Shown here: piece by piece, positions 2,824 through 25,144 of the stretch
Numbering within the stretch: position 1 is the stretch's first letter
Layout: each line of letters begins with the position of its first letter
Program-made: the position numbers and the translations under genes
Notes under the pieces: model-generated
Told to the model about the DNA's origin: nothing
Seen by the model: only the letters and a program-made list of their open reading frames with translations
The model's database searches: none
NCBI RefSeq assembly: GCF_000179635.2
Contig: NC_014833.1
Coordinates: forward strand, 240,001-272,000
From: Ruminococcus albus 7 = DSM 20455
GTDB taxonomy: Bacteria > Bacillota > Clostridia > Oscillospirales > Ruminococcaceae
DNA: 32,000 bases
Direction: 5' to 3'

Positions 2824-3183
2824 TCAACTGTTATCGCCTAATAAATCTATTTCACTCTCATTCAATTCCTTAACCATTTTGATAAAATCGTTATATTCAT
2901 CACCATTTAAATAATTAAAGGATTGATTGGATTGAATTATCTTATTTGTAAGACTTTTTATTCTATCTATGGCATATGTCGGCAGTCCTCCCGCCTTTTT
3001 CCACATCGCATGATAAAAAATTATTTCTGCAATAATCAGTTGTTCAGTATCTGCAACTCCTAAAACTTCTTCCGAGTACATTCTTGCAATATTAGCTTTA
3101 TCTATAGGGTATCTTGTAAAATAATGTTCAATTGAATCAATCGTAGTTTGTTTTTCTTCAAAATAGTTGTTATCTATGTACAT
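2824..3183 (-). CDS. hypothetical small acidic protein (119 aa), AT-rich orphan gene
   Basis: It is an intact ORF with a weak SD (taggga) and its own consensus promoter. By eye its GC content is far below the flanking genes. I recognise no family; it is helical and acidic, resembling small immunity-type proteins only in general character. Confidence 0.6.
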   Translation of the reverse strand: MYIDNNYFEEKQTTIDSIEHYFTRYPIDKANIARMYSEEVLGVADTEQLIIAEIIFYHAMWKKAGGLPTYAIDRIKSLTNKIIQSNQSFNYLNGDEYNDFIKMVKELNESEIDLLGDNS

Positions 3184-3282: not shown

Positions 3283-3311
3283 ATTATACCACAACGCGGA
3301 GCTTTCGTCAA
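3283..3311 (-). promoter_or_regulatory. near-consensus sigma-A promoter for the 119-aa orphan gene
   Basis: The minus strand reads TTGACG (3311-3306, overlapping the aroF stop codon), a 17-nt spacer, then TATAAT (3288-3283), preceded by TGg. Confidence 0.65.
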
Positions 3312-4327
3312 TCAGCGTCAACAGGTCTTCCGCAGAATTCAGCCATAGCGCGTATTTTATTCATTACCGCCTTGAATTTTTCGGGGGTCAGGGACTGTGC
3401 GCCATCGCTCCATGCGTGTTCGGGGTCGATGTGTACCTCTATTTCCAGTGCGTGACAGCCCATTGCCACCGCGCCGAGAGAACAGGGCTCTACCAGTGAA
3501 GCGATACCTGTCGCATGGCTGGGGTCAACGGTAACAGGCAGATGTGTCTTCTGTTTCAGCAGAGGTACACTTGCAAGGTCGAGGGTGTTGCGGGTGGCGG
3601 TCTCATAGGTGCGTATGCCGCGCTCGCAGAGTATCACCTGACTGTTGCCCTCGCTCATGATGTACTCAGCCGACATCAGCAGTTCCTGCAAAGTACCGGA
3701 AAGACCACGTTTCAGCAGTATAGGCTTGTTCAGCCTGCCGAGGGCTTTCAGCAGGGTGAAGTTCTGTGAATTTCTCGCACCCACCTGAATGATATCAACA
3801 TCGTCGAAAAGGTCGATATCGCTGACGTCCATTATCTCGGTGACAATGGGCAGACCTGTCTCAGCTCTTGCTTTTTTCAGGATATCAATGCCCTCCTTGC
3901 CAAGACCCTGGAAAGCGTAAGGCGAAGTTCTCGGCTTGAATGCGCCGCCGCGAAGCATTGTGGCACCTGCTTCCTTGACGGCAATAGCGGTCTTGATAGT
4001 CTGTTCCTCGGTCTCAACCGAGCAGGGACCCGCAATTACCTGCAAGCGGTCGCCGCCCAGCTTTCTGCCGCGGACATCTATCACAGTGTCCAGCGGGTGG
4101 AAACGTCTGTTGGCGTTTTTGTAGGGTTCCTGCACACGCTTGACAGTGTCAACTATCTCCCTGGCCTGCACCGATTCGATATCCACCGCTGTTGTATCAC
4201 CGATAAGACCGATTATCTTCGAGTGTACGCCCTCTACAAGATTTGATTTCACATCGAACCTTGTGAGCCATTCCATAAGTTCCTCGATCTGCTTTTTGTT
4301 GGCGCTGTCTTTTAATACGATAACCAT
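3308..4327 (-). CDS. aroF: 3-deoxy-7-phosphoheptulonate (DAHP) synthase, type I-beta with an N-terminal ferredoxin-like regulatory domain
   Basis: ...[15 protein letters not shown]...[18 protein letters not shown]...[11 protein letters not shown]...KRG...DPSHATG is the KDO8PS-like DAHPS core. It is preceded by a domain of about 70 aa, as in Thermotoga-type enzymes. The start is set at ATG 4327 (SD aggagg, 7-nt spacer). The ORF-track extension to 4468 runs through a terminator hairpin. Confidence 0.9.
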
Positions 4328-4386
4328 AATGATTCCTCCTGTAAATAAATAGAAATAATTAGAATATATTGTCAGAAAATCTGCAT

Positions 4387-4422
4387 CAAAAAAACCGTGC
4401 TCTCGTAATACGAAAGCACGGT
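4387..4422 (-). terminator. intrinsic terminator inside the aroF leader (candidate attenuator)
   Basis: The minus strand has a 13-bp stem (accgtgctttcgt att acgagagcacggt) followed by TTTTTTT, about 60 nt upstream of the aroF ATG. Confidence 0.75.
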
Positions 4423-4445
4423 CTGTGACCTGAATGGATATATTG

Positions 4446-4571
4446 TCAGCCCATATCCGGCTGTACACCCGTCCGCATAGCTTTCATACCACGACAAATA
4501 AGCTTGTAGCCAAAAAATCGGCTAAAGCTAAAGAAGTATGTAAAGACAGCGAATACGGTGATAAGCTTCAT
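4446..4571 (-). CDS. candidate leader peptide, 41 aa, Phe/Tyr-rich (MKLITVFAVFTYFFSFSRFFGYKLICRGMKAMRTGVQPDMG)
   Basis: I translated this by hand from the minus strand. ATG is at 4571, TGA at 4448-4446, and SD agaaagg lies 10 nt upstream. Residues 7-22 contain 7 Phe and 2 Tyr. It lies between a consensus promoter and the terminator that precedes DAHP synthase. It is too short for the supplied ORF track. Confidence 0.5.
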   Translation of the reverse strand: MKLITVFAVFTYFFSFSRFFGYKLICRGMKAMRTGVQPDMG

Positions 4572-4613
4572 TACGGGTCAACCTTTCTGTTTACTGATCA
4601 AGATTATAGAAAC

Positions 4614-4642
4614 ATTATACTTCATCAAATTAGGAATGTCAA
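4614..4642 (-). promoter_or_regulatory. consensus sigma-A promoter of the aroF leader
   Basis: The minus strand reads TTGACA (4642-4637), a 17-nt spacer, then TATAAT (4619-4614). Confidence 0.7.
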
Positions 4643-4675
4643 GGATAAAGAAAGCTTGTTTACACAAAATTAATA

Positions 4676-5191
4676 TTATTGCCTGTCAAAGTAAGCCTTT
4701 CCTTTATCGGGCTTGAAATAAGTTCGCAGATATCCGTCCTTGGAAACTATTACAAATTCGTTTGTTTCCTCGAGGTAATAGGCATCGTCGCCGTCCTCTT
4801 TTTCGGTTTTGTGCAGGGCGGAAGGGTCATTGACAACGTCCGAAGCCGCCTTGCGGTAGTCATCGGCGCTTGCAAATCCCATTTCTATCCCATGTTTTTC
4901 GTAGTGCTGGTCACGAAGTTTTTTTGTCCTGAACCAATACTCTGTGTATTCATCGTCCTCGGGATCCTCGCTGTCGGCAGGGATATCACTCTGAGGTTCG
5001 CTTGATATTTCAGATGAACTATCCTCTGCAGTTATTGGGTCTGCTGATGTATTATCAGTTGATGCTGAACTGCTATCCTCGATTATCAGATCATAGAGAG
5101 AATCACTGCTTTTATTTTTCTGACCGCTGCAGCCCGTCAGTGTGAAAAGCACTGCTATAATAGTAAGCAGGCTGAATATCTTTAGTTTCAT
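4676..5191 (-). CDS. secreted lipoprotein of unknown function (171 aa)
   Basis: MKLKIFSLLTIIAVLFTLTGCSGQ is a signal peptide with lipobox LTGC. A Ser/Asp/Glu-rich linker and a C-terminal globular domain of about 95 aa follow. The start is set at ATG 5191 (SD gggagg). The ORF-track extension to 5257 overlaps a promoter and a terminator. Confidence 0.75.
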   Translation of the reverse strand: MKLKIFSLLTIIAVLFTLTGCSGQKNKSSDSLYDLIIEDSSSASTDNTSADPITAEDSSSEISSEPQSDIPADSEDPEDDEYTEYWFRTKKLRDQHYEKHGIEMGFASADDYRKAASDVVNDPSALHKTEKEDGDDAYYLEETNEFVIVSKDGYLRTYFKPDKGKAYFDRQ

Positions 5192-6668: not shown

Positions 6669-6741
6669 TTGGGGCGGAAGGATTCGAACCTTCGGAGTGA
6701 CGGAGTCAGAGTCCGTTGCCTTACCGCTTGGCGACGCCCCA
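6669..6741 (-). tRNA. tRNA-Gln (anticodon CTG)
   Basis: The minus strand reads tggggcgtcgccaagcggtaaggcaacggaCTCTGACtccgtcactccgaaggttcgaatccttccgcccca+a. The acceptor, D, anticodon (loop ctCTGac) and T arms fold by hand. There is no encoded CCA. The variable region appears 1 nt longer than in its neighbour. Confidence 0.85.
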
Positions 6742-6744
6742 GTA

Positions 6745-6819
6745 TGGTTGGGATAGATGGATTCGAACCATCGAATGACGGAGTCAAAGTCCGTTGCCTT
6801 ACCGCTTGGCTATACCCCA
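6745..6819 (-). tRNA. tRNA-Gln (anticodon TTG), CCA encoded
   Basis: The minus strand reads tggggtatagccaagcggtaaggcaacggaCTTTGACtccgtcattcgatggttcgaatccatctatcccaacca. It forms a canonical cloverleaf with an encoded 3' CCA. Confidence 0.9.
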
Positions 6820-10989: not shown

Positions 10990-11859
10990 CTATATAAGGC
11001 TTCTGAGTTCTTCGGCTGTCAGACTTTTCTGGAAAGCGAGATTTATACCTTCGGATATATATGCGGCGGCAGAAGCCGCAAGTTTGTCGATGCTTCCCGG
11101 AGTGACGGTCATGCGGTCGCATCCCTCGGGTGCGGCGGCACCGAATATCATCTCGGCGGCTGATGTGAGGTCAACTACCATGGGTACGCCTATAGCAACG
11201 CAGGTGACGCCGAGGGTCGCACGGGAAAGCTCTTTTCGGGAGTTTTCAACACCGCTTCCCGGGGATATGCCTGTATCACATATCTGTATCGTCCGCCCGA
11301 GATGCTCCAGATCCCAGCAGGCAAGGGCATCAACAGCTATGACAAGGTCGGGCTGAACTGCTTCACACAGGGCTTTGATATGCTCGGTGGATTCTATGCC
11401 CGTTTGACCCAGCACACCTGTTTCGATAGCTGATACTTCCGTCAGCTCGTCTGTTTCTGTTTCGTGTGCCAGATGTTTGATGTGTCTTGTAGCGAATATC
11501 TTATCCACCGTCAGAGGACCAAGTGCATCGGCGGTAAGCTGTCGGTTGCCAAGCCCTGCCACAAGTATGCGCTCGCATCCGTCTGCAAGTCTTCGCAGAG
11601 TCTCGGCAATTGTTCGTATACGTGCATCGCGGCAGGTACAGAAGTCATCAAAGGTACCGTCAAGAGCTTTAAGGGTGATATACCGCCCCTTGGGACGGCA
11701 CAGCTCAAGAGCTGCAGAGGAACTCTCAATGGTGATATCTGCGATCTCAAGCTGTGAGTCAGACAGTATATCTATCCTGCGGCTTACGCCTTCGAGGTCA
11801 CGGCTGAGGGAGAGCTTCCTGGCGGCTTCCACAGCAAGATCGGTTCGCGGGTCTTTCAT
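10990..11859 (-). CDS. gpr: germination protease (spore SASP endopeptidase GPR)
   Basis: The N-terminal RTDLAVEA, plus VAGLGNRQLTADALGP...ATRHI...VIAVDALA...IQICDTGISPGSGVENSRKELS...IGVPMVVD, matches GPR signatures. It is divergent from rpsT, as in Bacillus. Confidence 0.85.
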   Translation of the reverse strand: MKDPRTDLAVEAARKLSLSRDLEGVSRRIDILSDSQLEIADITIESSSAALELCRPKGRYITLKALDGTFDDFCTCRDARIRTIAETLRRLADGCERILVAGLGNRQLTADALGPLTVDKIFATRHIKHLAHETETDELTEVSAIETGVLGQTGIESTEHIKALCEAVQPDLVIAVDALACWDLEHLGRTIQICDTGISPGSGVENSRKELSRATLGVTCVAIGVPMVVDLTSAAEMIFGAAAPEGCDRMTVTPGSIDKLAASAAAYISEGINLAFQKSLTAEELRSLI

Positions 11860-18599: not shown

Positions 18600-20009
18600 T
18601 CAGATATCTTCGTAAAGGCGAATATATTCCTTTGCGGAGCGTTCCCAGCTGAAATCCTGCTTGAATGCGGTGGATACCAGTCGTCCCCATCGCATCTTGT
18701 CGTCATAGTACGCTCTTGCACGTACAGTTGCGTTCAGCATATCCTGGGCGTTGTAACTCTTGAAAGTGAAGCCGTTGCCGTTTTCTCCGCCTGCATCGCG
18801 TATGGTATCACGCAGACCGCCTGTTTCGCGGACTATGGGGATAGTGCCGTATCTCAGTGCTATCATCTGGGCAAGACCGCAGGGCTCGCTCTGGGACGGC
18901 ATGAGGAACATATCTGCACCTGCATAGATGCGTCTTGAAAGTTCGGGTACAAAGCCTAAACGCAGACCTACTCTGTCGGGATAACGGTAATGCATCTCGG
19001 TGAAGAAGTCCTCGTATATCTTTTCGCCTGAACCCAGTATTGCAAATTTATAGCCCAGGCGTATCATATCTTCAAAAACATACTTTATAAGGTCAAGACC
19101 CTTGTGTGAAACGAATCTTGTAACTATGCCGATGATGGGTTCCTTGCCCGTAGCTATGCCGAGTTCGTCGCACAGTGCTTTTTTACAGACAAGTTTGCCG
19201 AGCCTGTCGTTAAGACTGTAATTTTTTGCCAGATTCTTGTCGGTGGCGGGGTCGTATATCGTCTGGGATATGCCGTTTAAAATACCGCTGAGTTTATACT
19301 GGTGGTGGACAAGTTCTCTGTCGAGAGAGTGGGAATACCAGGGGTCGAGTATCTCCCATGCATAGCTTGGTGATACTGTGGTGACCCTGTCACTGACCTC
19401 TATTGCGGCTTTCATGAAATTCACGTCGCCGTCATAGCTCAGCATATCTGTATGATAGAGGGGTATGCCCATGAGGTCGTTTATAAGTTCAAGACCGTAC
19501 TGACCCTGATACTGGATATTGTGTATGGTAAATACTGTCTTGATATCCTCATATCCCGGCTGATAGCGGTAGAAGATATCATAGTAAACGGGCACGAGTG
19601 CGGTCTGCCAGTCATTGGCATTTATCACATCGGGTTTGAAGTCGATGAATTTAATCAGCTCAAGAACTGCGCGGGAGAAGAATATATATCTTTCTGCATC
19701 ATCGTAGAAGCCGTACATACCGTTTCTGGCGAAGTAGTATTCGTTATCGAGCAGATAGTAGGTAACGCCGTTTTCAACACCTGTGAAAACTCCGCAGTAC
19801 TGGTTGCGCCATGCTACGGGCACGGTGAAGTTTGTAACGTAATTCAGTCTGTCTCTGAGTTCCTGACGGATACTGCCGTAAAGGGGCAGTACAACGCGGC
19901 AGTCCTGTCCGAGTGCGTTGAGTGCGGCGGGCAGGGAGCCTGCAACATCTGCGAGTCCTCCCGATGCGGAATAGGGAAGTCCCTCGCTGGCTGTATAGAG
20001 TATATTCAT
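18600..20009 (-). CDS. glgA: glycogen synthase (ADP-glucose type)
   Basis: The sequence begins MNILYTASEGLPYSASGGLADVAGSLPAAL and also contains ...PSQSEPCGLAQM.... The start is set at ATG 20009 (SD aaggaggg). Confidence 0.95.
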   Translation of the reverse strand: MNILYTASEGLPYSASGGLADVAGSLPAALNALGQDCRVVLPLYGSIRQELRDRLNYVTNFTVPVAWRNQYCGVFTGVENGVTYYLLDNEYYFARNGMYGFYDDAERYIFFSRAVLELIKFIDFKPDVINANDWQTALVPVYYDIFYRYQPGYEDIKTVFTIHNIQYQGQYGLELINDLMGIPLYHTDMLSYDGDVNFMKAAIEVSDRVTTVSPSYAWEILDPWYSHSLDRELVHHQYKLSGILNGISQTIYDPATDKNLAKNYSLNDRLGKLVCKKALCDELGIATGKEPIIGIVTRFVSHKGLDLIKYVFEDMIRLGYKFAILGSGEKIYEDFFTEMHYRYPDRVGLRLGFVPELSRRIYAGADMFLMPSQSEPCGLAQMIALRYGTIPIVRETGGLRDTIRDAGGENGNGFTFKSYNAQDMLNATVRARAYYDDKMRWGRLVSTAFKQDFSWERSAKEYIRLYEDI

Positions 20010-20075
20010 AGTATCACCCTCCTTTTGCGTAAGTGATAGGTCGGTCATAGTTGGTGGGGTCTGCCTGGGCAGCCG

Positions 20076-20594
20076 TTACAATTGATATTTCTTTGAAAAA
20101 TCATCAAACATATCTGAAAATTCAGCTTTCTTTTCTTCGGGCATATTATTATATGAATCAACGATAAGCTTTTGGAAAGCAGTGGGAAAGGAATTTGTCT
20201 GATAGTTATACATACTTAAAAGTATGGTTTCTATCAGGCTGTATTCCATTGTTGTTTTCCTTTGGTTCATCAGCGTGACCGTTTTGTTATCATCAAAGTC
20301 ATAGCAAGTGTTCCATACACAAGCCTGAAGAAAATGGTCACCTTTATCATTTATAAGGATATCCATGCCTGTATCAAAAGCTTTTGAAGATGACCGCTTC
20401 ATGAGTTCATTTAATGCATAAGGAACTTCATCGATATATACCATATCATCTATGATCTCAACAAGCTCATCATCAGATGATCGTTTAATAAGTTCTTTGA
20501 ATGCTTCGCCCATTTTTACGTGATCTTCAGTTCTTTCAATAATATCATATAGCTGATCGTTTGAATAATTCTTCAGTTCCGTATTTTCGCTCAT
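20076..20594 (-). CDS. hypothetical acidic protein (172 aa), AT-rich orphan gene inside the glg cluster
   Basis: It is an intact ORF with much lower GC than the flanking glg genes. It has an internal repeat (FKELIKRSSDDELVEIIDD vs LNELMKRSSSKAFDTGMD). I recognise no family. Confidence 0.55.
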   Translation of the reverse strand: MSENTELKNYSNDQLYDIIERTEDHVKMGEAFKELIKRSSDDELVEIIDDMVYIDEVPYALNELMKRSSSKAFDTGMDILINDKGDHFLQACVWNTCYDFDDNKTVTLMNQRKTTMEYSLIETILLSMYNYQTNSFPTAFQKLIVDSYNNMPEEKKAEFSDMFDDFSKKYQL

Positions 20595-20660
20595 TTGTAA
20601 AAGTTAGTATTTATGCCGTGAAACAGGTGCGGTTTCTCCCACAGACCATGTTTTATTATC

Positions 20661-20694
20661 GAAAACGCACGGCACCGACCGACGGCGCCGTGCG
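20661..20694 (-). terminator. GC-rich hairpin / intrinsic terminator after glgD
   Basis: The minus strand has the stem cgcacggcgcc gtcggtc ggtgccgtgcg (one mismatch) followed by TTTTC. Confidence 0.6.
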
Positions 20695-20705
20695 GCGAGT
20701 TTTTA

Positions 20706-21833
20706 TTATACGGTAGCGCCCTTGGATACGTACATCTGGTAATCCGCGGTGCTTGTCAGAACGTGCTTGGGAGCAACGGTAACGTCCTTATCGGTAATGA
20801 CGTAGTTCATCTGTGCGCCGTCGCCTACAACAGTACCCTGTCCGAGGATGCAGTTCTTGACCTTTGTGCCCTTTCCGATCTTTACACCCCTGAACAGCAC
20901 GCAGTTCTCAACTTCGCCCTCGATTATGCAGCCGTCTGCTACAAGAGAGTTCTTTACGATGCTGTCAAGATCGTACTTAGCAGGTGCGTTGTCGCTGACC
21001 TTTGTATATATGGATCTCTTGGGAACGAAGAGCTTTCTTGCGTTCTCGGGATCGAGGATATCCATATTAGCCTTGAAGTATGTATCGGTGGAATTGAGCT
21101 TGCTGAAATAGTACTTGTATTCATAAGCCATTATTTTCAGCTCATTGCATCTTTCCTGAAGGATATCTTTCTCGAACGAAACTTTGCCCCTTGCTATGGA
21201 GTCCCTTATCATATCAACTATGAATTCCATGCTCATTACGAACATATTCAGGCTGCAGGTGCAGGTGCCGCTGAGTTCGGGCTGAATAAGCACGCTGGTG
21301 ACCTGACCTTCGTCATTTGTGTTCAGGACGGTGGCGGTCTTCAGGTCTTCTGAGGTATAGGGGCCGGTGTGTGACACTACGGTTATATCGGCACCTGTCT
21401 CGATATGCTTTGCAACTATCGGTTTGTAGTCGATATTGGTTATAACATCGCAGTCGGTCAGTACAACATACTTTGCGGAGGAATGAGTGATAAAGTTCAT
21501 AGCGCCGTATATAGCCTCTATCCTGCCTCTGTAAAGAGTACTTTCAACGTTTCCGAAAGGAGGCAGGATATAAAGTCCGCCTTTCTTTCTTGCAAGATCC
21601 CATTCTCTTGCACTTCCCAGGTGATCCATCAGCGACTGATAGTTGCTCTTTGTAATAACACCTACCTCAGAGATGCCGCTGTTTACCATGTTTGAGAGAG
21701 GGAAATCTATCAGGCGGTATCTTCCGCCGAACATTACAGAACCCATAGTCCTGTTCTTTGTCATGTCGCCAAGAGTCGTGTCGTGCATATTTGCGAAAAC
21801 AAGACCCAGTACATTACCCATATTTATTTCCAT
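20706..21833 (-). CDS. glgD: glucose-1-phosphate adenylyltransferase, GlgD (regulatory) subunit
   Basis: ...LGLVFANMHDTTLGDMTKNRTMGSVMFGGRYRLIDFPLSNMVNSGI... lacks the GGxGxRL motif of GlgC and lies directly downstream of glgC, as in Firmicutes. Confidence 0.85.
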   Translation of the reverse strand: MEINMGNVLGLVFANMHDTTLGDMTKNRTMGSVMFGGRYRLIDFPLSNMVNSGISEVGVITKSNYQSLMDHLGSAREWDLARKKGGLYILPPFGNVESTLYRGRIEAIYGAMNFITHSSAKYVVLTDCDVITNIDYKPIVAKHIETGADITVVSHTGPYTSEDLKTATVLNTNDEGQVTSVLIQPELSGTCTCSLNMFVMSMEFIVDMIRDSIARGKVSFEKDILQERCNELKIMAYEYKYYFSKLNSTDTYFKANMDILDPENARKLFVPKRSIYTKVSDNAPAKYDLDSIVKNSLVADGCIIEGEVENCVLFRGVKIGKGTKVKNCILGQGTVVGDGAQMNYVITDKDVTVAPKHVLTSTADYQMYVSKGATV

Positions 21834-21851
21834 TTTACCCGGTCTCCTTCC

Positions 21852-23054
21852 TTACATATTTTCGTAGATTATTGCCTTTGGCACAACATTGGCTCCGTCG
21901 GAGATAGTCAGGTTATGACCTACTACCGCAACGCCCCAGCTGTCTTTGTCCTCGATAGTTTCGGGTCTTGCGCCTATCTGACAGTTCTCGCCGATGACTG
22001 AGTTTTCACCTACGATGGCATACTCTACCTTAGCGCCCTTCTTGACTACTGCGCCGGGCATGAGGATAGAGTCGTATATAACAGCGCCCTCTTCAACGAT
22101 AACGCCGTCGGATATCATGGAAAATTCAACGCTGCCGTCTATGACACAGCCCTCTGTAACCATACAGTTCTGTATCTGCGCATTCTTGCCGATACTCTGG
22201 GGGGGATATACGGGGTTTCTGGAATATATCTTCCAGTTGGGGTCATAGAGGTCGATGGGGATGTTGGGATTGATAAGATCCATATTTGCTTCCCAGAGGG
22301 ATTCAATTGTTCCAACGTCCTTCCAGTAGCCGTCAAAGCGGTAAGCTACCAGCTTTTCGCCTGCTTCTCTCATATCGGGTATGATATTTTTTCCGAAGTC
22401 CTTGGAAGCAGTTTCGTCTTTTTCATTGGCGATGAGGTAAGCCCTCAGCTTCTCCCATGTGAATATGTAGATACCCATTGAAGCCAGTGTGGATCTTGGG
22501 TTCTTGGGCTTTTCTTCAAAGTCGATGATATTGTCATCCTCGTCGGTTATCATTATTCCGAATCTGCTTGCTTCGTGCTTGGGAACATCGAGTACTGCGA
22601 TGGTAGCAGCTGCTTCTTTCTTCTTGTGGAACTGCAGCATTTTGTTATAGTCCATCTTATAGATGTGGTCACCTGAGAGGACAACAACGTACTCGGGGTC
22701 ATATCTGTCGATAAATCCGATGTTCTGGTAGATAGCGTTAGCTGTACCGGAATACCAGTCGGCACCTGTTGCCTTCTGGTAAGGCGGCAGTACATGGACA
22801 CCGCCGTGGATACGGTCAAGGTCCCAGGGCTGACCGTTGCCTATGTACTCGTTGAGTACGAGAGGCTGATACTGTGTAAGTACGCCCACTGTGTCTATAC
22901 CCGAATTTATGCAGTTAGACAAAGGGAAGTCAATGATACGATATTTTGCGCCGAATGGCACTGCGGGCTTTGCAACGTCCTGAGTCAGGGCATAAAGTCT
23001 GCTGCCCTGTCCGCCTGCGAGAAGCATAGCCACACATTCTTTTTTGTTGAACAT
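21852..23054 (-). CDS. glgC: glucose-1-phosphate adenylyltransferase, catalytic subunit
   Basis: The sequence begins [53 protein letters not shown]. The start is set at ATG 23054 rather than the upstream GTG at 23063. Confidence 0.95.
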
Positions 23055-23116
23055 AAATTTCACCCACCATATATTTTATACTATTGACAACGCTGTAAGC
23101 TGAAAAGTCAAGCAAC

Positions 23117-25090
23117 TTATTCTGCTTCTTTTGCGGTCTTTTTCTTGTCGGAATTCTTTTTGTGCTCTGCCTTTTTGATAGTAGCTTTTTTCTTTTCGCT
23201 GTCCTTTTTCACTTCAAAGTACATACAGGAGAAAGGCGGTATATCTATACATACCGACTGTTCAAAGCCGTGCATGGGCACATCCTGTGACTTTACAGTG
23301 CCGTTGGTCATAGGTGCGCCGTCAGGAGAAGCGGAGTTGAATACTTCGGTATACTTGCCTTTGTAAGGCACTCCGAAGCAGTAGCTCTTTCTCTCAACGG
23401 GGACAAAGTTGCAAAGCACTATGACCTCGTTCGCCTCCGCATCAAATCTGCGGAATATGATTATACTCTGTCTGAAATCGTCATTTGCTATCCAGCTGAA
23501 TCCCGACCAGTCGAAGTCTTTCTGCCAGAACTGAGGATGGTCGAGATAGAAGCGGTTCAGCCGTTTTGAGAACGCGTGGTAGTTGCGGTGGTTCTCGTAT
23601 TCTTCTACAAGGAACCATTCAAGACCGTTCTCGTAGTCCCACTCCCTGAACTGGGCGAACTCTGTGCCCATGAACATAAGCTTCTTGCCGGGGTGAGCCA
23701 TCATATATGCATTGAACAGCTTGCACTGCTCAAACTTTTTATCAACATCTCCGCCGTACATCTTGTTTACCAGCGAAGCTTTTCCGTGTACTACTTCATC
23801 ATGGGATATAGGCAGTACGAAATTCTCCGAAAATGCGTAGAAGAACGAGAAGGTCAGCATATCGTGATGGAATGCTCTGTCTATGGGGTCATAGCTCATA
23901 TATTTGAGCATATCGTTCATCCAGCCCATGTTCCACTTGAAGTTGAAGCCAAGACCGCCATCGCTGACCGGCTTTGTTACCATTGGCCATGCGGTGGATT
24001 CTTCGGCTATCATAAGCACTGTGGGGCATCTGGAGAATACGGCTGTATTCAGGTCACGAAGGAACTGTACAGCTTCGAGGTTCTCGTGACCGCCGTAGAT
24101 ATTTGGTGTCCATTCGCCGTCGCGTCTGTCATAATCGAGGTACAGCATGGAGGCTACTGCATCAACACGCAGACCGTCGATATGGTACTGTTCTATCCAG
24201 TACAGCGCGTTGGAGATAAGGAAGCTTTTTACTTCTCCTCTTCCATAGTCGAAAACTCTTGTGCCCCATGCGAGATGGTCACGCTTTTTAGGGTCGGCAT
24301 ACTCATAGCTTGCGCCGCCGTCAAATTCAAACAGACCTGCCTCGTCCCTTGGAAAATGTGCGGGTACCCAGTCGAGGATAACGGATATCCCTGCCTGATG
24401 GAACAGGTCTATCATCGCCATGAACTCGTGGGGAGTACCAAAACGTGAGGTCGGTGCATAGTAGCCTATGCCCTGATAACCCCAGGAACCGTCAAAGGGG
24501 AATTCTGCCAGGGGCATGAATTCGATGTGGGTATAGCCCATATCCTTGAGGTAAGGTATTATCGTATTTGCAAATTTGGTATACGAATAGTACACACCGT
24601 CATCGCAGGACTTCCACGAATTCAGGTGAACTTCGTATATATTCATTGGGCAGTTGTAAACGTCCTTGGTCTTGCGTTCCTTCTGCCACTTATCGTCTTT
24701 CCATTTATAGCCTTCGATATCGAATATCTTTGAGCCGGTCTGGGGCTTCAGCTCCATATGTGTACCATAGGGGTCAGCCTTGCAGCGGCGTTTGCCGTCG
24801 CAGCCGACTATGGAGAATTTATATGTATCAAATGTCTTCATGCCCGGGACGAATACTTCCCAGACTTCCGACTTTTCAAGCTGCTGCATAGGTGTGGCGT
24901 TATCATCCCAGTTGTTGAAATCGCCTACCAGTGATACTGCGCGTGCCTTGGCAGCCCATACTCTGAAATAATAACCGTCATTTCCGTCTTTTACGCCTTT
25001 ATGGCAGCCGAGAAAACGGTATGTTTCATAATTTGTTCCGTTGTGGAAAAGGTATAGAGGTATCTCATATTCCTGAGGCATCTTATCCAT
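23117..25090 (-). CDS. glgB: 1,4-alpha-glucan branching enzyme with a Lys-rich C-terminal tail
   Basis: GH13 motifs are present (...DWVPAHF...GLRVDAVASM...AEESTAWP...SHDEVVHGK...). The start is set at ATG 25090 (SD aaggagg). The last 30 or so residues are KKDSEKKKATIKKAEHKKNSDKKKTAKEAE. Confidence 0.95.
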   Translation of the reverse strand: MDKMPQEYEIPLYLFHNGTNYETYRFLGCHKGVKDGNDGYYFRVWAAKARAVSLVGDFNNWDDNATPMQQLEKSEVWEVFVPGMKTFDTYKFSIVGCDGKRRCKADPYGTHMELKPQTGSKIFDIEGYKWKDDKWQKERKTKDVYNCPMNIYEVHLNSWKSCDDGVYYSYTKFANTIIPYLKDMGYTHIEFMPLAEFPFDGSWGYQGIGYYAPTSRFGTPHEFMAMIDLFHQAGISVILDWVPAHFPRDEAGLFEFDGGASYEYADPKKRDHLAWGTRVFDYGRGEVKSFLISNALYWIEQYHIDGLRVDAVASMLYLDYDRRDGEWTPNIYGGHENLEAVQFLRDLNTAVFSRCPTVLMIAEESTAWPMVTKPVSDGGLGFNFKWNMGWMNDMLKYMSYDPIDRAFHHDMLTFSFFYAFSENFVLPISHDEVVHGKASLVNKMYGGDVDKKFEQCKLFNAYMMAHPGKKLMFMGTEFAQFREWDYENGLEWFLVEEYENHRNYHAFSKRLNRFYLDHPQFWQKDFDWSGFSWIANDDFRQSIIIFRRFDAEANEVIVLCNFVPVERKSYCFGVPYKGKYTEVFNSASPDGAPMTNGTVKSQDVPMHGFEQSVCIDIPPFSCMYFEVKKDSEKKKATIKKAEHKKNSDKKKTAKEAE

Positions 25091-25144
25091 GAAAACTCTT
25101 TCCTCCTTTGTTTGCAAGGCATAGCAATACCTTTTTATACATCT

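Follow-up and report, generated by a model that had tools for sequence, protein, structure and literature searches.

A candidate leader-peptide attenuator with phenylalanine and tyrosine codons upstream of DAHP synthase in Ruminococcus albus and other Clostridia

The pheA leader of Escherichia coli (pheL) and the trp, his, leu, thr and ilv attenuators of Proteobacteria share one logic, in which a promoter-proximal open reading frame (ORF) is rich in codons for the end product of the pathway (PMC11802643). Leaders of the pheL type carry mutually exclusive helices, 1:2, 2:3 and 3:4, and an intrinsic terminator in front of the structural gene. Here we describe an element of the same logic on the minus strand of a 32,000-nt stretch of the Ruminococcus albus 7 genome (contig NC_014833.1, positions 240,001 to 272,000; this whole stretch is called the window, and its positions are used throughout). 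The element precedes the gene for DAHP synthase, the committed step of aromatic amino acid synthesis, and similar leaders precede this gene in many related Clostridia. The mix of two amino acids in the leader ORF, phenylalanine (Phe, F) and tyrosine (Tyr, Y), recalls the multivalent thr and ilv leaders. In comparison with the pheL type, the Clostridia leader shows no sequence or covariance-model similarity (no Rfam match at E-value <=10), it is longer (median 32 codons; 41 in the window) and it has a conserved hairpin nested in the 1:2 helix. Also, while DAHP synthase of E. coli is under the TyrR and TrpR repressors (PMC11802643), in Clostridia DAHP synthase itself would be the attenuated gene.

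The same enzyme, mechanism class and sensing residues (Phe, Tyr) are met in Corynebacterium glutamicum, an actinobacterium, where the aroR leader peptide with its Phe-Tyr-Phe codons lies upstream of aroF and transcription readthrough rises under Phe limitation (Neshat et al. 2014, as cited in PMC11802643; PMC4046766). The aroR leader has experimental support, whereas the Clostridia leader is known from sequence; there are three regulatory codons in aroR versus 7-9 of 12 in Clostridia leaders; and the supply of Tyr is reportedly without effect on aroR, whereas in Clostridia leaders the count of Tyr codons comes close to that of Phe codons.

Another likeness is to uORFC-13-1, a set of 24 sequences from Acholeplasma (Mollicutes) and environmental DNA, in which an upstream ORF precedes an intrinsic terminator and aroF (Brewer et al. 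2021, PMC8632094). A promoter, a ribosome binding site, a start codon and a U-run coding for 'at least one' Phe were described, and Phe-dependent attenuation was proposed (PMC8632094). This architecture, compared by its published description only, is matched by the leader in the window. Still, uORFC-13-1 is Phe-based and comes from Acholeplasma, while the Clostridia leader spans several families and carries Phe plus Tyr codons; the 160 related loci analysed below include no Acholeplasma locus.

One leader-peptide attenuator in Rfam is the leu/phe leader of Lactococcus. An earlier note on this DNA, made from the sequence alone, had called a translation-coupled attenuator of aromatic genes unusual in Firmicutes. 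This was an overstatement: besides the Acholeplasma aroF leader (PMC8632094), the his genes of the Bacillus cereus group gave the first 'regular' leader peptides to be noted in Firmicutes (PMC2965389), and a Leu-rich ilv attenuator peptide is reported for Staphylococcus aureus (PMC5794164). The Bacillus, Staphylococcus and Lactococcus leaders belong to the same phylum and mechanism class, so ribosome-mediated attenuation does occur in Firmicutes; they serve, however, other amino acids and other genes, have much narrower reported taxonomic ranges and have no sequence relation to the Clostridia leader. T-box and TRAP systems, classical in Bacilli, act on the same pathway, also by conditional intrinsic termination in a 5' leader; unlike the Clostridia element, they need no leader ORF.

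The carriers of the leader described below include Anaerovoracaceae of the order Peptostreptococcales (loci L034 and L062), the order to which Clostridioides difficile also belongs. In the aroF 5' untranslated region of C. difficile premature termination was mapped, with no known riboregulator (PMC8237595). As a lead, the Clostridia leader family might account for this termination. A search of full-text literature, with most subscription journals outside its scope, returned no earlier description of this leader in Clostridia; a prior description is possible. The family is apparently undescribed, while the class of mechanism is a textbook one.

The leader ORF and its conservation before DAHP synthase

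The element was read on the minus strand between positions 3000 and 5000 (Table 1). Its consensus promoter, Shine-Dalgarno (SD) sequence and 41-codon ORF with seven Phe and two Tyr codons in codons 7-22 had all been pointed out in the earlier note and were found as described. The transcript is expected to start ~35-40 nt 5' of the leader ATG, and TTGACA/TATAAT pairs likewise stand upstream of the leader ORF in the related loci that we inspected. The terminator with its U7 tract is also in place, although the distance of 24 nt and the stem of 13 bp given for it earlier had to be corrected: the stem begins 21-22 nt past the leader stop and has 14-15 pairs. The downstream gene, identified in the note as DAHP synthase at about 60 nt, is indeed one, with Pfam matches to DAHP_synth_1 (PF00793, 1e-74) and to DAHP_snth_FXD (PF18152, 1.5e-18), an N-terminal ferredoxin-like regulatory domain. 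Between the T tract and the ATG of this gene there are 60 nt, in which the only promoter-like site is a weak 9/12 match overlapping the start codon.

Table 1. Coordinates of the leader elements in the window and of leucine-rich-repeat genes in related loci (locus:positions)
Feature	Position	Strand	Basis or remark
Promoter: TTGACA (4642-4637), 17-nt spacer, TATAAT (4619-4614)	4614-4642	-	sigma-A/sigma-70-type, 12/12 match; promoter scan
Leader SD, AGAAAGG	4582-4588	-	10 nt upstream of ATG 4571
Leader ORF, 41 codons + stop, peptide MKLITVFAVFTYFFSFSRFFGYKLICRGMKAMRTGVQPDMG	4446-4571	-	ORF call and sequence
Regulatory codon run, codons 7-22: 7 Phe (TTC/TTT) + 2 Tyr (TAC)	4506-4553	-	sequence
Region 1 (anti-antiterminator 5' strand), codons 5-12	4536-4558	-	minimum free energy (MFE) pairing with 4495-4473
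Region 1 core GTCTTTACATAC (Val-Phe-Thr-Tyr)	4547-4536	-	nucleotide-invariant in closest family
In-ORF hairpin P1, AGCUUUAGCCGA-UUUU-UUGGCUA.AAGCU, nested within 1:2 helix	4501-4529	-	MFE and RNAalifold consensus
Region 2, switch strand UGUCGUGGUAUGAAAGCUAUGCGG; partners region 1 or terminator 5' arm + loop	4473-4495	-	constrained folds
Intrinsic terminator	4388-4424	-	hairpin 4424-4392, 15 pairs, 3-nt loop, about -21.5 kcal/mol
Region 3 (terminator 5' arm + loop)	~4424-4407	-	
Region 4 (terminator 3' arm)	~4406-4392	-	
T7	4394-4388	-	
DAHP synthase gene, 339 aa: SD AGGAGG 4340-4335, ATG 4327, stop 3308	3308-4340	-	Pfam
Leucine-rich-repeat genes upstream of DAHP synthase	L019:1914-2936, L023:1811-2917, L024:1877-2962, L022:1923-2945, L029:1747-2949, L100:37-1167	+	

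Relatives were retrieved with the DAHP synthase protein, giving 80 genome and 80 metagenome loci (57-88% identity). The 500 nt upstream of each gene were scanned for the short ORF richest in codons for Phe, Tyr and tryptophan (Trp, W) and for a hairpin with a T run at most 160 nt from the ORF stop; counts were made over the 155 loci whose upstream sequence ran to 200 nt or more. We observed an F/Y-rich ORF followed by a strong terminator in 131 of these 155 loci, which makes 116 distinct leaders, so the conservation in orthologous leaders on which the earlier reading depended is there and extends over several families. According to record titles and NCBI lineages, the carriers are Ruminococcus and other Oscillospiraceae, Christensenellaceae, Lachnospiraceae and Anaerovoracaceae/Aminipila, all of them Clostridia. 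Carriers that can be cultivated include Hominimerdicola aceti (L008), Oscillibacter valericigenes Sjm18-20 (L044), Marasmitruncus (L035), Angelakisella (L075) and Neobittarella (L055). Ten further loci have the F/Y ORF but, by our thresholds, no terminator. The remaining 14 have no F/Y ORF directly upstream; in nine of them a same-strand gene ends 33-83 nt upstream, meaning that DAHP synthase is not the first gene of its operon there, and in four of these nine the F/Y leader and hairpin are situated upstream of the preceding gene, that is, at the 5' end of the operon.

The codon content of the leader ORFs is far from that of shuffled sequence. At least seven F/Y/W codons within 12 consecutive codons were found in 74% of the 116 leaders, versus 0.7% when these regions were shuffled with dinucleotides preserved (3,480 shuffles); on their reverse strand seven was reached in 1/116. 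The densest windows contain 452 Phe, 368 Tyr and 14 Trp codons in total, with at least two Phe plus at least two Tyr codons in 87% of leaders; judging by this usage, the element appears to be bivalent for Phe and Tyr. Several features point to translation of the leader ORF. The start codon is ATG in 114/116 leaders, and an SD-like match of at least 4 nt is present in 101/116. The leader of a near-identical strain (L081) differs from that of the window by one in-frame extra Phe codon and by synonymous changes. We aligned the closest family (window, L081, L001-L011, L013, L017, L018, L086 and L096) by MAFFT; in the 17-sequence alignment all gaps within the ORF are multiples of three, with the single exception of a one-base column coming from L010.

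The peptide itself is less constant than its composition. Leaders range from 13 to 63 codons in length and have F/Y richness as their sole common trait, which argues against a conserved functional peptide. Some peptide-level motifs are conserved within the closest family (e.g. VFTYFF and RVKKA), and these are invariant at synonymous sites as well and coincide with RNA strands 1 and 2. A search of the window peptide against 5.8 billion protein sequences returned one similar protein, which is unnamed; the leader ORF is, therefore, essentially unannotated.

The terminators of the 131 loci have a median free energy of -19.9 kcal/mol. Median spacing is 32 nt from the leader stop to the terminator and 40 nt from the terminator to the ATG of the gene, the latter gap being <=60 nt in 79% of leaders. 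In most loci such a gap is too short to hold a promoter of its own; together with the single 9/12 site in the gap of the window, this means that expression of DAHP synthase must pass through the terminator.

Competing helices

The 228-nt leader of the window folds at -75.1 kcal/mol (z = -4.8; none of 200 dinucleotide shuffles was as stable). For constrained folding the transcript was cut just before the terminator 3' arm and a 30-nt ribosome footprint was forced to be single-stranded. With no ribosome, region 2 (4495-4473) was paired with 4558-4536 around the nested hairpin P1 (4529-4501) and there was no antiterminator. An antiterminator of at least 12 bp formed when the A site was placed anywhere in codons 1-24, a range that takes in all Phe and Tyr codons; it was absent once the ribosome occupied codons 25-36 or had reached the stop. 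In this model the constrained folds reproduce the three states of attenuation.

The note had paired regions 2 and 3 by hand, and this pairing was reproduced and extended: the 2:3 duplex joins 4490-4473 with ~4423-4407 by 15 bp at -16.9 kcal/mol and reaches into the terminator loop. The 1:2 duplex (-11.0 kcal/mol) overlaps it by 20 nt. A different region 1, at 4530-4524 with 4484-4478 as its partner, had been put forward in the note; it is neither the favoured nor a conserved pairing, and we rejected it because those bases are the 5' arm of the conserved P1, while region 2 is sequestered by 4558-4536. P1 is possibly a pause or structural element. The terminator of the window is thermodynamically stronger than the antiterminator (-21.5 versus -16.9 kcal/mol) and is retained in every MFE structure of the complete transcript, as expected of a kinetic switch. 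In kinetic attenuators a weaker antiterminator is normal, since the antiterminator forms first.

Within the closest family, the 14 nt GTCTTTACATACTT (Val-Phe-Thr-Tyr-Phe; window 4536-4549, minus strand; alignment columns 49-62) are invariant in 17/17 leaders, third codon positions included. The DAHP synthases of these 17 leaders differ by up to ~30%. Such invariance exceeds the need of pairing alone, as G-U changes would be tolerated, and may reflect an extra constraint, e.g. a pause signal or a codon-specific context of stalling. Downstream, the CGTG(T/G)..AAAG(C) segment of region 2 is conserved in relatives, and in 20/23 leaders of the wider family it is the best downstream partner of the invariant motif; the partner segment overlaps the strand that pairs best with the terminator arm by 6-20 nt.

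Both P1 and the terminator were recovered by RNAalifold, and 12/19 of their pairs have compensatory, two-sided changes (P1 4/10, terminator 8/9); the terminator helix 3:4, which the note had also proposed, thus covaries in relatives. P1 has 92% of alignment cells paired. For the whole terminator-state structure (1:2 + P1 + 3:4) the value is 91.1%, versus 36-49% in slid registers, and 0/500 shuffles reach it; the 1:2 helix alone has 89.5% paired cells. For the 2:3 helix in fixed columns we observed 79.8% paired cells versus 46-57% in slid registers. In the closest family this pairing rests on a conserved GAAAGC/GCUUUC. Some rows of the MAFFT alignment, including that of the window, are out of register.

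A register-free comparison was made over all 116 leaders: the segment that follows the F/Y run was allowed to form its best duplex with a terminator 5' arm and loop, taken either from the same leader or from each of the others. Energies were -15.2 kcal/mol for own and -11.8 kcal/mol for cross pairs (z -14.2; 0/5,000 permutations). A reversed-arm decoy gave -12.24 versus -11.21 kcal/mol (z -4.7), a composition effect of ~1 kcal/mol, and a decoy segment of equal length taken upstream of the ORF gave -9.28 versus -9.44 kcal/mol (z +0.7). The difference was retained among divergent representatives, obtained by clustering at 62% and 70% (a 55% threshold left only seven): -14.8 versus -11.52 kcal/mol for 27 representatives (z -6.7, decoy -2.5) and -15.15 versus -11.8 kcal/mol for 60 (z -10.1, decoy -3.9). 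For the 1:2 helix, taken as the F/Y-run segment against the region 2 core, own pairs had -15.4 and cross pairs -11.8 kcal/mol (z -13.4, decoy -5.8). Complementarity of the antiterminator and of the anti-antiterminator is specific to each leader's own partner strand. Of the helix support that the note had looked to, covariation is present for the terminator and P1 and own-partner specificity for 2:3 and 1:2, while the 2:3 columns of the closest family are not significant (see below). Relative to the end of the leader stop codon, the median position at which region 2 ends is -1 nt (interquartile range -11 to +13), so that a ribosome terminating there would cover region 2, as in the classical model.

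Proposed mechanism and its alternatives

We consider it likely that the element is a ribosome-mediated (leader-peptide) transcription attenuator that would tune DAHP synthase to how much charged tRNA-Phe and tRNA-Tyr is available. What the present analysis shows is the set of sequence elements and its conservation, helix covariation or partner-specific complementarity, and thermodynamic feasibility, and the checks of conservation and of helices, run in silico, favour the attenuator suggested in the earlier note. Transcription would begin at the consensus promoter and a ribosome would load onto the 41-codon leader ORF. With Phe and Tyr plentiful, the ribosome would cross the F/Y run and region 2 and arrive at the stop codon; region 2 would be covered or re-paired with region 1 (4558-4536), the hairpin 4424-4392 with U7 would form, and transcription would terminate before DAHP synthase. 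With Phe-tRNA or Tyr-tRNA scarce, the ribosome would stall within codons 7-22, covering region 1 and/or P1; the free region 2 would pair with the emerging terminator 5' arm and loop (15 bp), blocking the terminator and permitting readthrough into the gene. In an untranslated leader the 1:2 pairing would form, which would make termination the default. It is the translation of the leader, the stalling, the synchrony of ribosome and polymerase and the regulatory output that we infer here from sequence.

Several considerations weigh against this mechanism. Bacillota are classed as a phylum of 'runaway transcription', in which ribosomes lag behind RNA polymerase (PMC13323073, PMC7858274); lagging ribosomes would oppose an attenuator of this kind, unless a pause in the leader held the polymerase back. 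In the window, the energy of the antiterminator is no better than that obtained with shuffled arms (p = 0.38), and 26 nt separate the end of region 2 from that of the stop codon, an outlier among leaders; a terminating ribosome would not cover region 2 there, and termination must rely on re-forming of 1:2. In the closest family, changes in the 1:2 helix are one-sided only (U-A to U-G), region 1 being invariant, and column-wise covariation of the 2:3 helix is not significant, with shuffles having 78.1% paired cells and 78/500 of them reaching the observed value. Across leaders, a test with shuffled 5' arms gave a weak signal (mean z = -0.55; p <= 0.05 in 14% of leaders); as a GC-rich 15-mer easily finds a chance partner, the own-versus-cross test with decoys was used instead. 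A three-state MFE test over 68 loci was noisy between loci.

The same alternative helices are silent on what selects between them, and the terminator could be conditional under a control that does not involve the ribosome: uncharged tRNA (a divergent T-box), a small-molecule riboswitch or a TRAP/PyrR-type protein, with the ORF being a by-product of U-rich RNA. T-box and protein-mediated attenuation are usual for amino acid genes in Bacillota (PMC2965389), and the reported uncoupling of translation from transcription in this phylum would speak for such control too. Nevertheless, we regard it as improbable. The earlier note had seen no T-box core in the leader, and our searches agree: the Rfam T-box, riboswitch and curated leader-peptide families (Phe, Leu/Phe, His, Leu, Thr, Trp) had no match at gathering score in the whole window, no Rfam family, T-box included, matched 4250-4750 even at E-value <=10, and the T-box, riboswitch and leader models had no match at gathering score in 20 related atypical loci. 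No TRAP-type run of (G/U)AG triplets was seen in the leader sequence. Apart from the nested 1:2/P1 hairpin, the ~150 nt of leader before the terminator contain nothing large and conserved that resembles an aptamer. U-richness, finally, fails to explain why Tyr codons are frame-specific (368 versus 452 Phe), why ATG and SD are conserved, why indels keep the frame and why the stop has a fixed position at the end of region 2.

Alternatively, the leader ORF could act on DAHP synthase post-transcriptionally, through mRNA stability or through translational coupling and re-initiation, with the hairpin as a leaky, largely constitutive terminator or as the stabilizing 3' end of a small RNA; the short terminated aroF 5' transcript of C. 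difficile could also act as a small RNA (PMC8237595). We think this very improbable, as the SD of DAHP synthase, 50 nt past the T tract, is outside every predicted leader helix, and it gives no role to the way in which region 2 matches the terminator 5' arm of its own leader; that the terminator of the window is stronger than its antiterminator would fit a constitutive terminator but is just as normal for kinetic attenuators. Still harder to credit is a small hydrophobic peptide with its own function (a membrane peptide or type I toxin, for example), next to DAHP synthase by accident and with the hairpin as its own terminator. The 41-aa peptide is hydrophobic, it comes with its own promoter, SD and terminator, and some of its motifs are conserved in the closest family; yet the 116 leaders (13-63 aa) have no common peptide sequence, the motifs are invariant at synonymous sites and match RNA strands 1 and 2, no antisense RNA or antitoxin feature was seen and there was no Rfam match. 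Besides, the element is always directly upstream of DAHP synthase or its operon, with a median gap of 40 nt and no promoter in it, so that the gene depends on readthrough. Given the variable length, the invariance of synonymous sites and the constant position before DAHP synthase, we rejected the toxin or functional-peptide explanation.

Variant loci, genomic surroundings and significance

Some related loci depart from the common arrangement. In one clade of DAHP synthases (~64-67% identity) a same-strand leucine-rich-repeat gene (341-401 aa; Pfam LRR_4, LRR_8; Table 1) ends 33-83 nt upstream. The F/Y leader and hairpin were seen upstream of this gene in L019, L023 and L024, and in L033 the same leader is upstream of a 360-aa same-strand ORF; by this arrangement, the leucine-rich-repeat protein appears to be under control of the Phe/Tyr attenuator. 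In four other loci (L036, L052, L053 and L056) one to three tandem copies of a ~125-nt repeat (…TTCGCAATACTGCGTTACTGCTTAGTGTTT…CGCGAGCCTTGTCTTGCTTGCATTTGACAA…) separate the leader terminator from the ATG of DAHP synthase, in gaps of 169-355 nt, with a TTGACA-like hexamer in every copy; the repeat looks like a small mobile or repeat element. An F/Y leader with a terminator before DAHP synthase was also seen in metagenome-assembled genomes labelled Lentisphaerae/Oligosphaeraceae and 'uncultured Bacteroides' (L031, L040, L067 and L068), and here we have either horizontal transfer of the gene with its leader or mis-binned Clostridia contigs.

The sole close relative with no leader (73% identity; L012:1502-2926) has a UvrD/PcrA-type helicase gene ending 74 nt upstream, and no F/Y ORF or terminator was found within 3 kb; apparently, the attenuator was lost or the locus was rearranged. 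Tandem DAHP synthase genes, both with the ferredoxin-like domain, occur in L109 (116-1153 and 1201-2211), where the upstream flank is too short to show a leader. In L080 a Clostridiales-1 RNA (Rfam RF01699, 153 bits; 1689-1856) lies ~1.1 kb upstream of the leader and DAHP synthase locus and is probably unrelated to the leader.

We detected no terminator 3' of DAHP synthase in the window. The stop codon of the gene is overlapped by a promoter-like site (11/12 match, extended TG; 3283-3311, minus strand); 3' of this site there are a 119-aa ORF with no Pfam match (2824-3183, minus) and a gene for a TrmO-type tRNA methyltransferase (2080-2802). Adjacent tRNA-Gln genes with anticodons CTG and TTG are located at 6669-6819 (minus), and another 12/12 consensus promoter with an extended TG lies downstream of this pair (6473-6445). 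A glycogen cluster at 18600-25117 (minus) includes genes for starch synthase, two glucose-1-phosphate adenylyltransferase-like proteins and branching enzyme. A germination protease gene (10993-11859) is consistent with a spore-forming Ruminococcus-like organism. Besides DAHP synthase, no further aromatic-pathway gene was found in the 32 kb.

As the mechanism is textbook, the advance would be one of scope and not of principle. Tentatively, we propose that these leaders could make up an undescribed and very widespread family of dual Phe/Tyr-sensing attenuators, and that in Clostridia of the gut and rumen (Oscillospiraceae/Ruminococcus, Christensenellaceae, Lachnospiraceae and Anaerovoracaceae) the shikimate pathway could be controlled at its entry, on the transcriptional level, mainly by this family. 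The analysis would annotate a regulatory element and a small ORF, nearly absent from protein databases, before the committed step of aromatic amino acid synthesis in many of these abundant organisms. In DAHP synthase of the Thermotoga type the ferredoxin-like domain mediates feedback inhibition by Tyr and Phe. With this domain on the enzyme and a Phe/Tyr leader in front of its gene, Phe and Tyr would control both the transcription of the gene and, allosterically, the activity of its product. The leader could also be used as a Phe/Tyr-responsive expression part for anaerobes. If the proposed family exists, ribosomes would be able to keep pace with RNA polymerase, or be synchronized to it by pausing, over the ~150-nt leader in a 'runaway' phylum. 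In such a phylum (PMC13323073) ribosome-dependent attenuation is expected to be rare, and the leader would provide a simple, natural and conserved test case for transcription-translation coupling in Clostridia.

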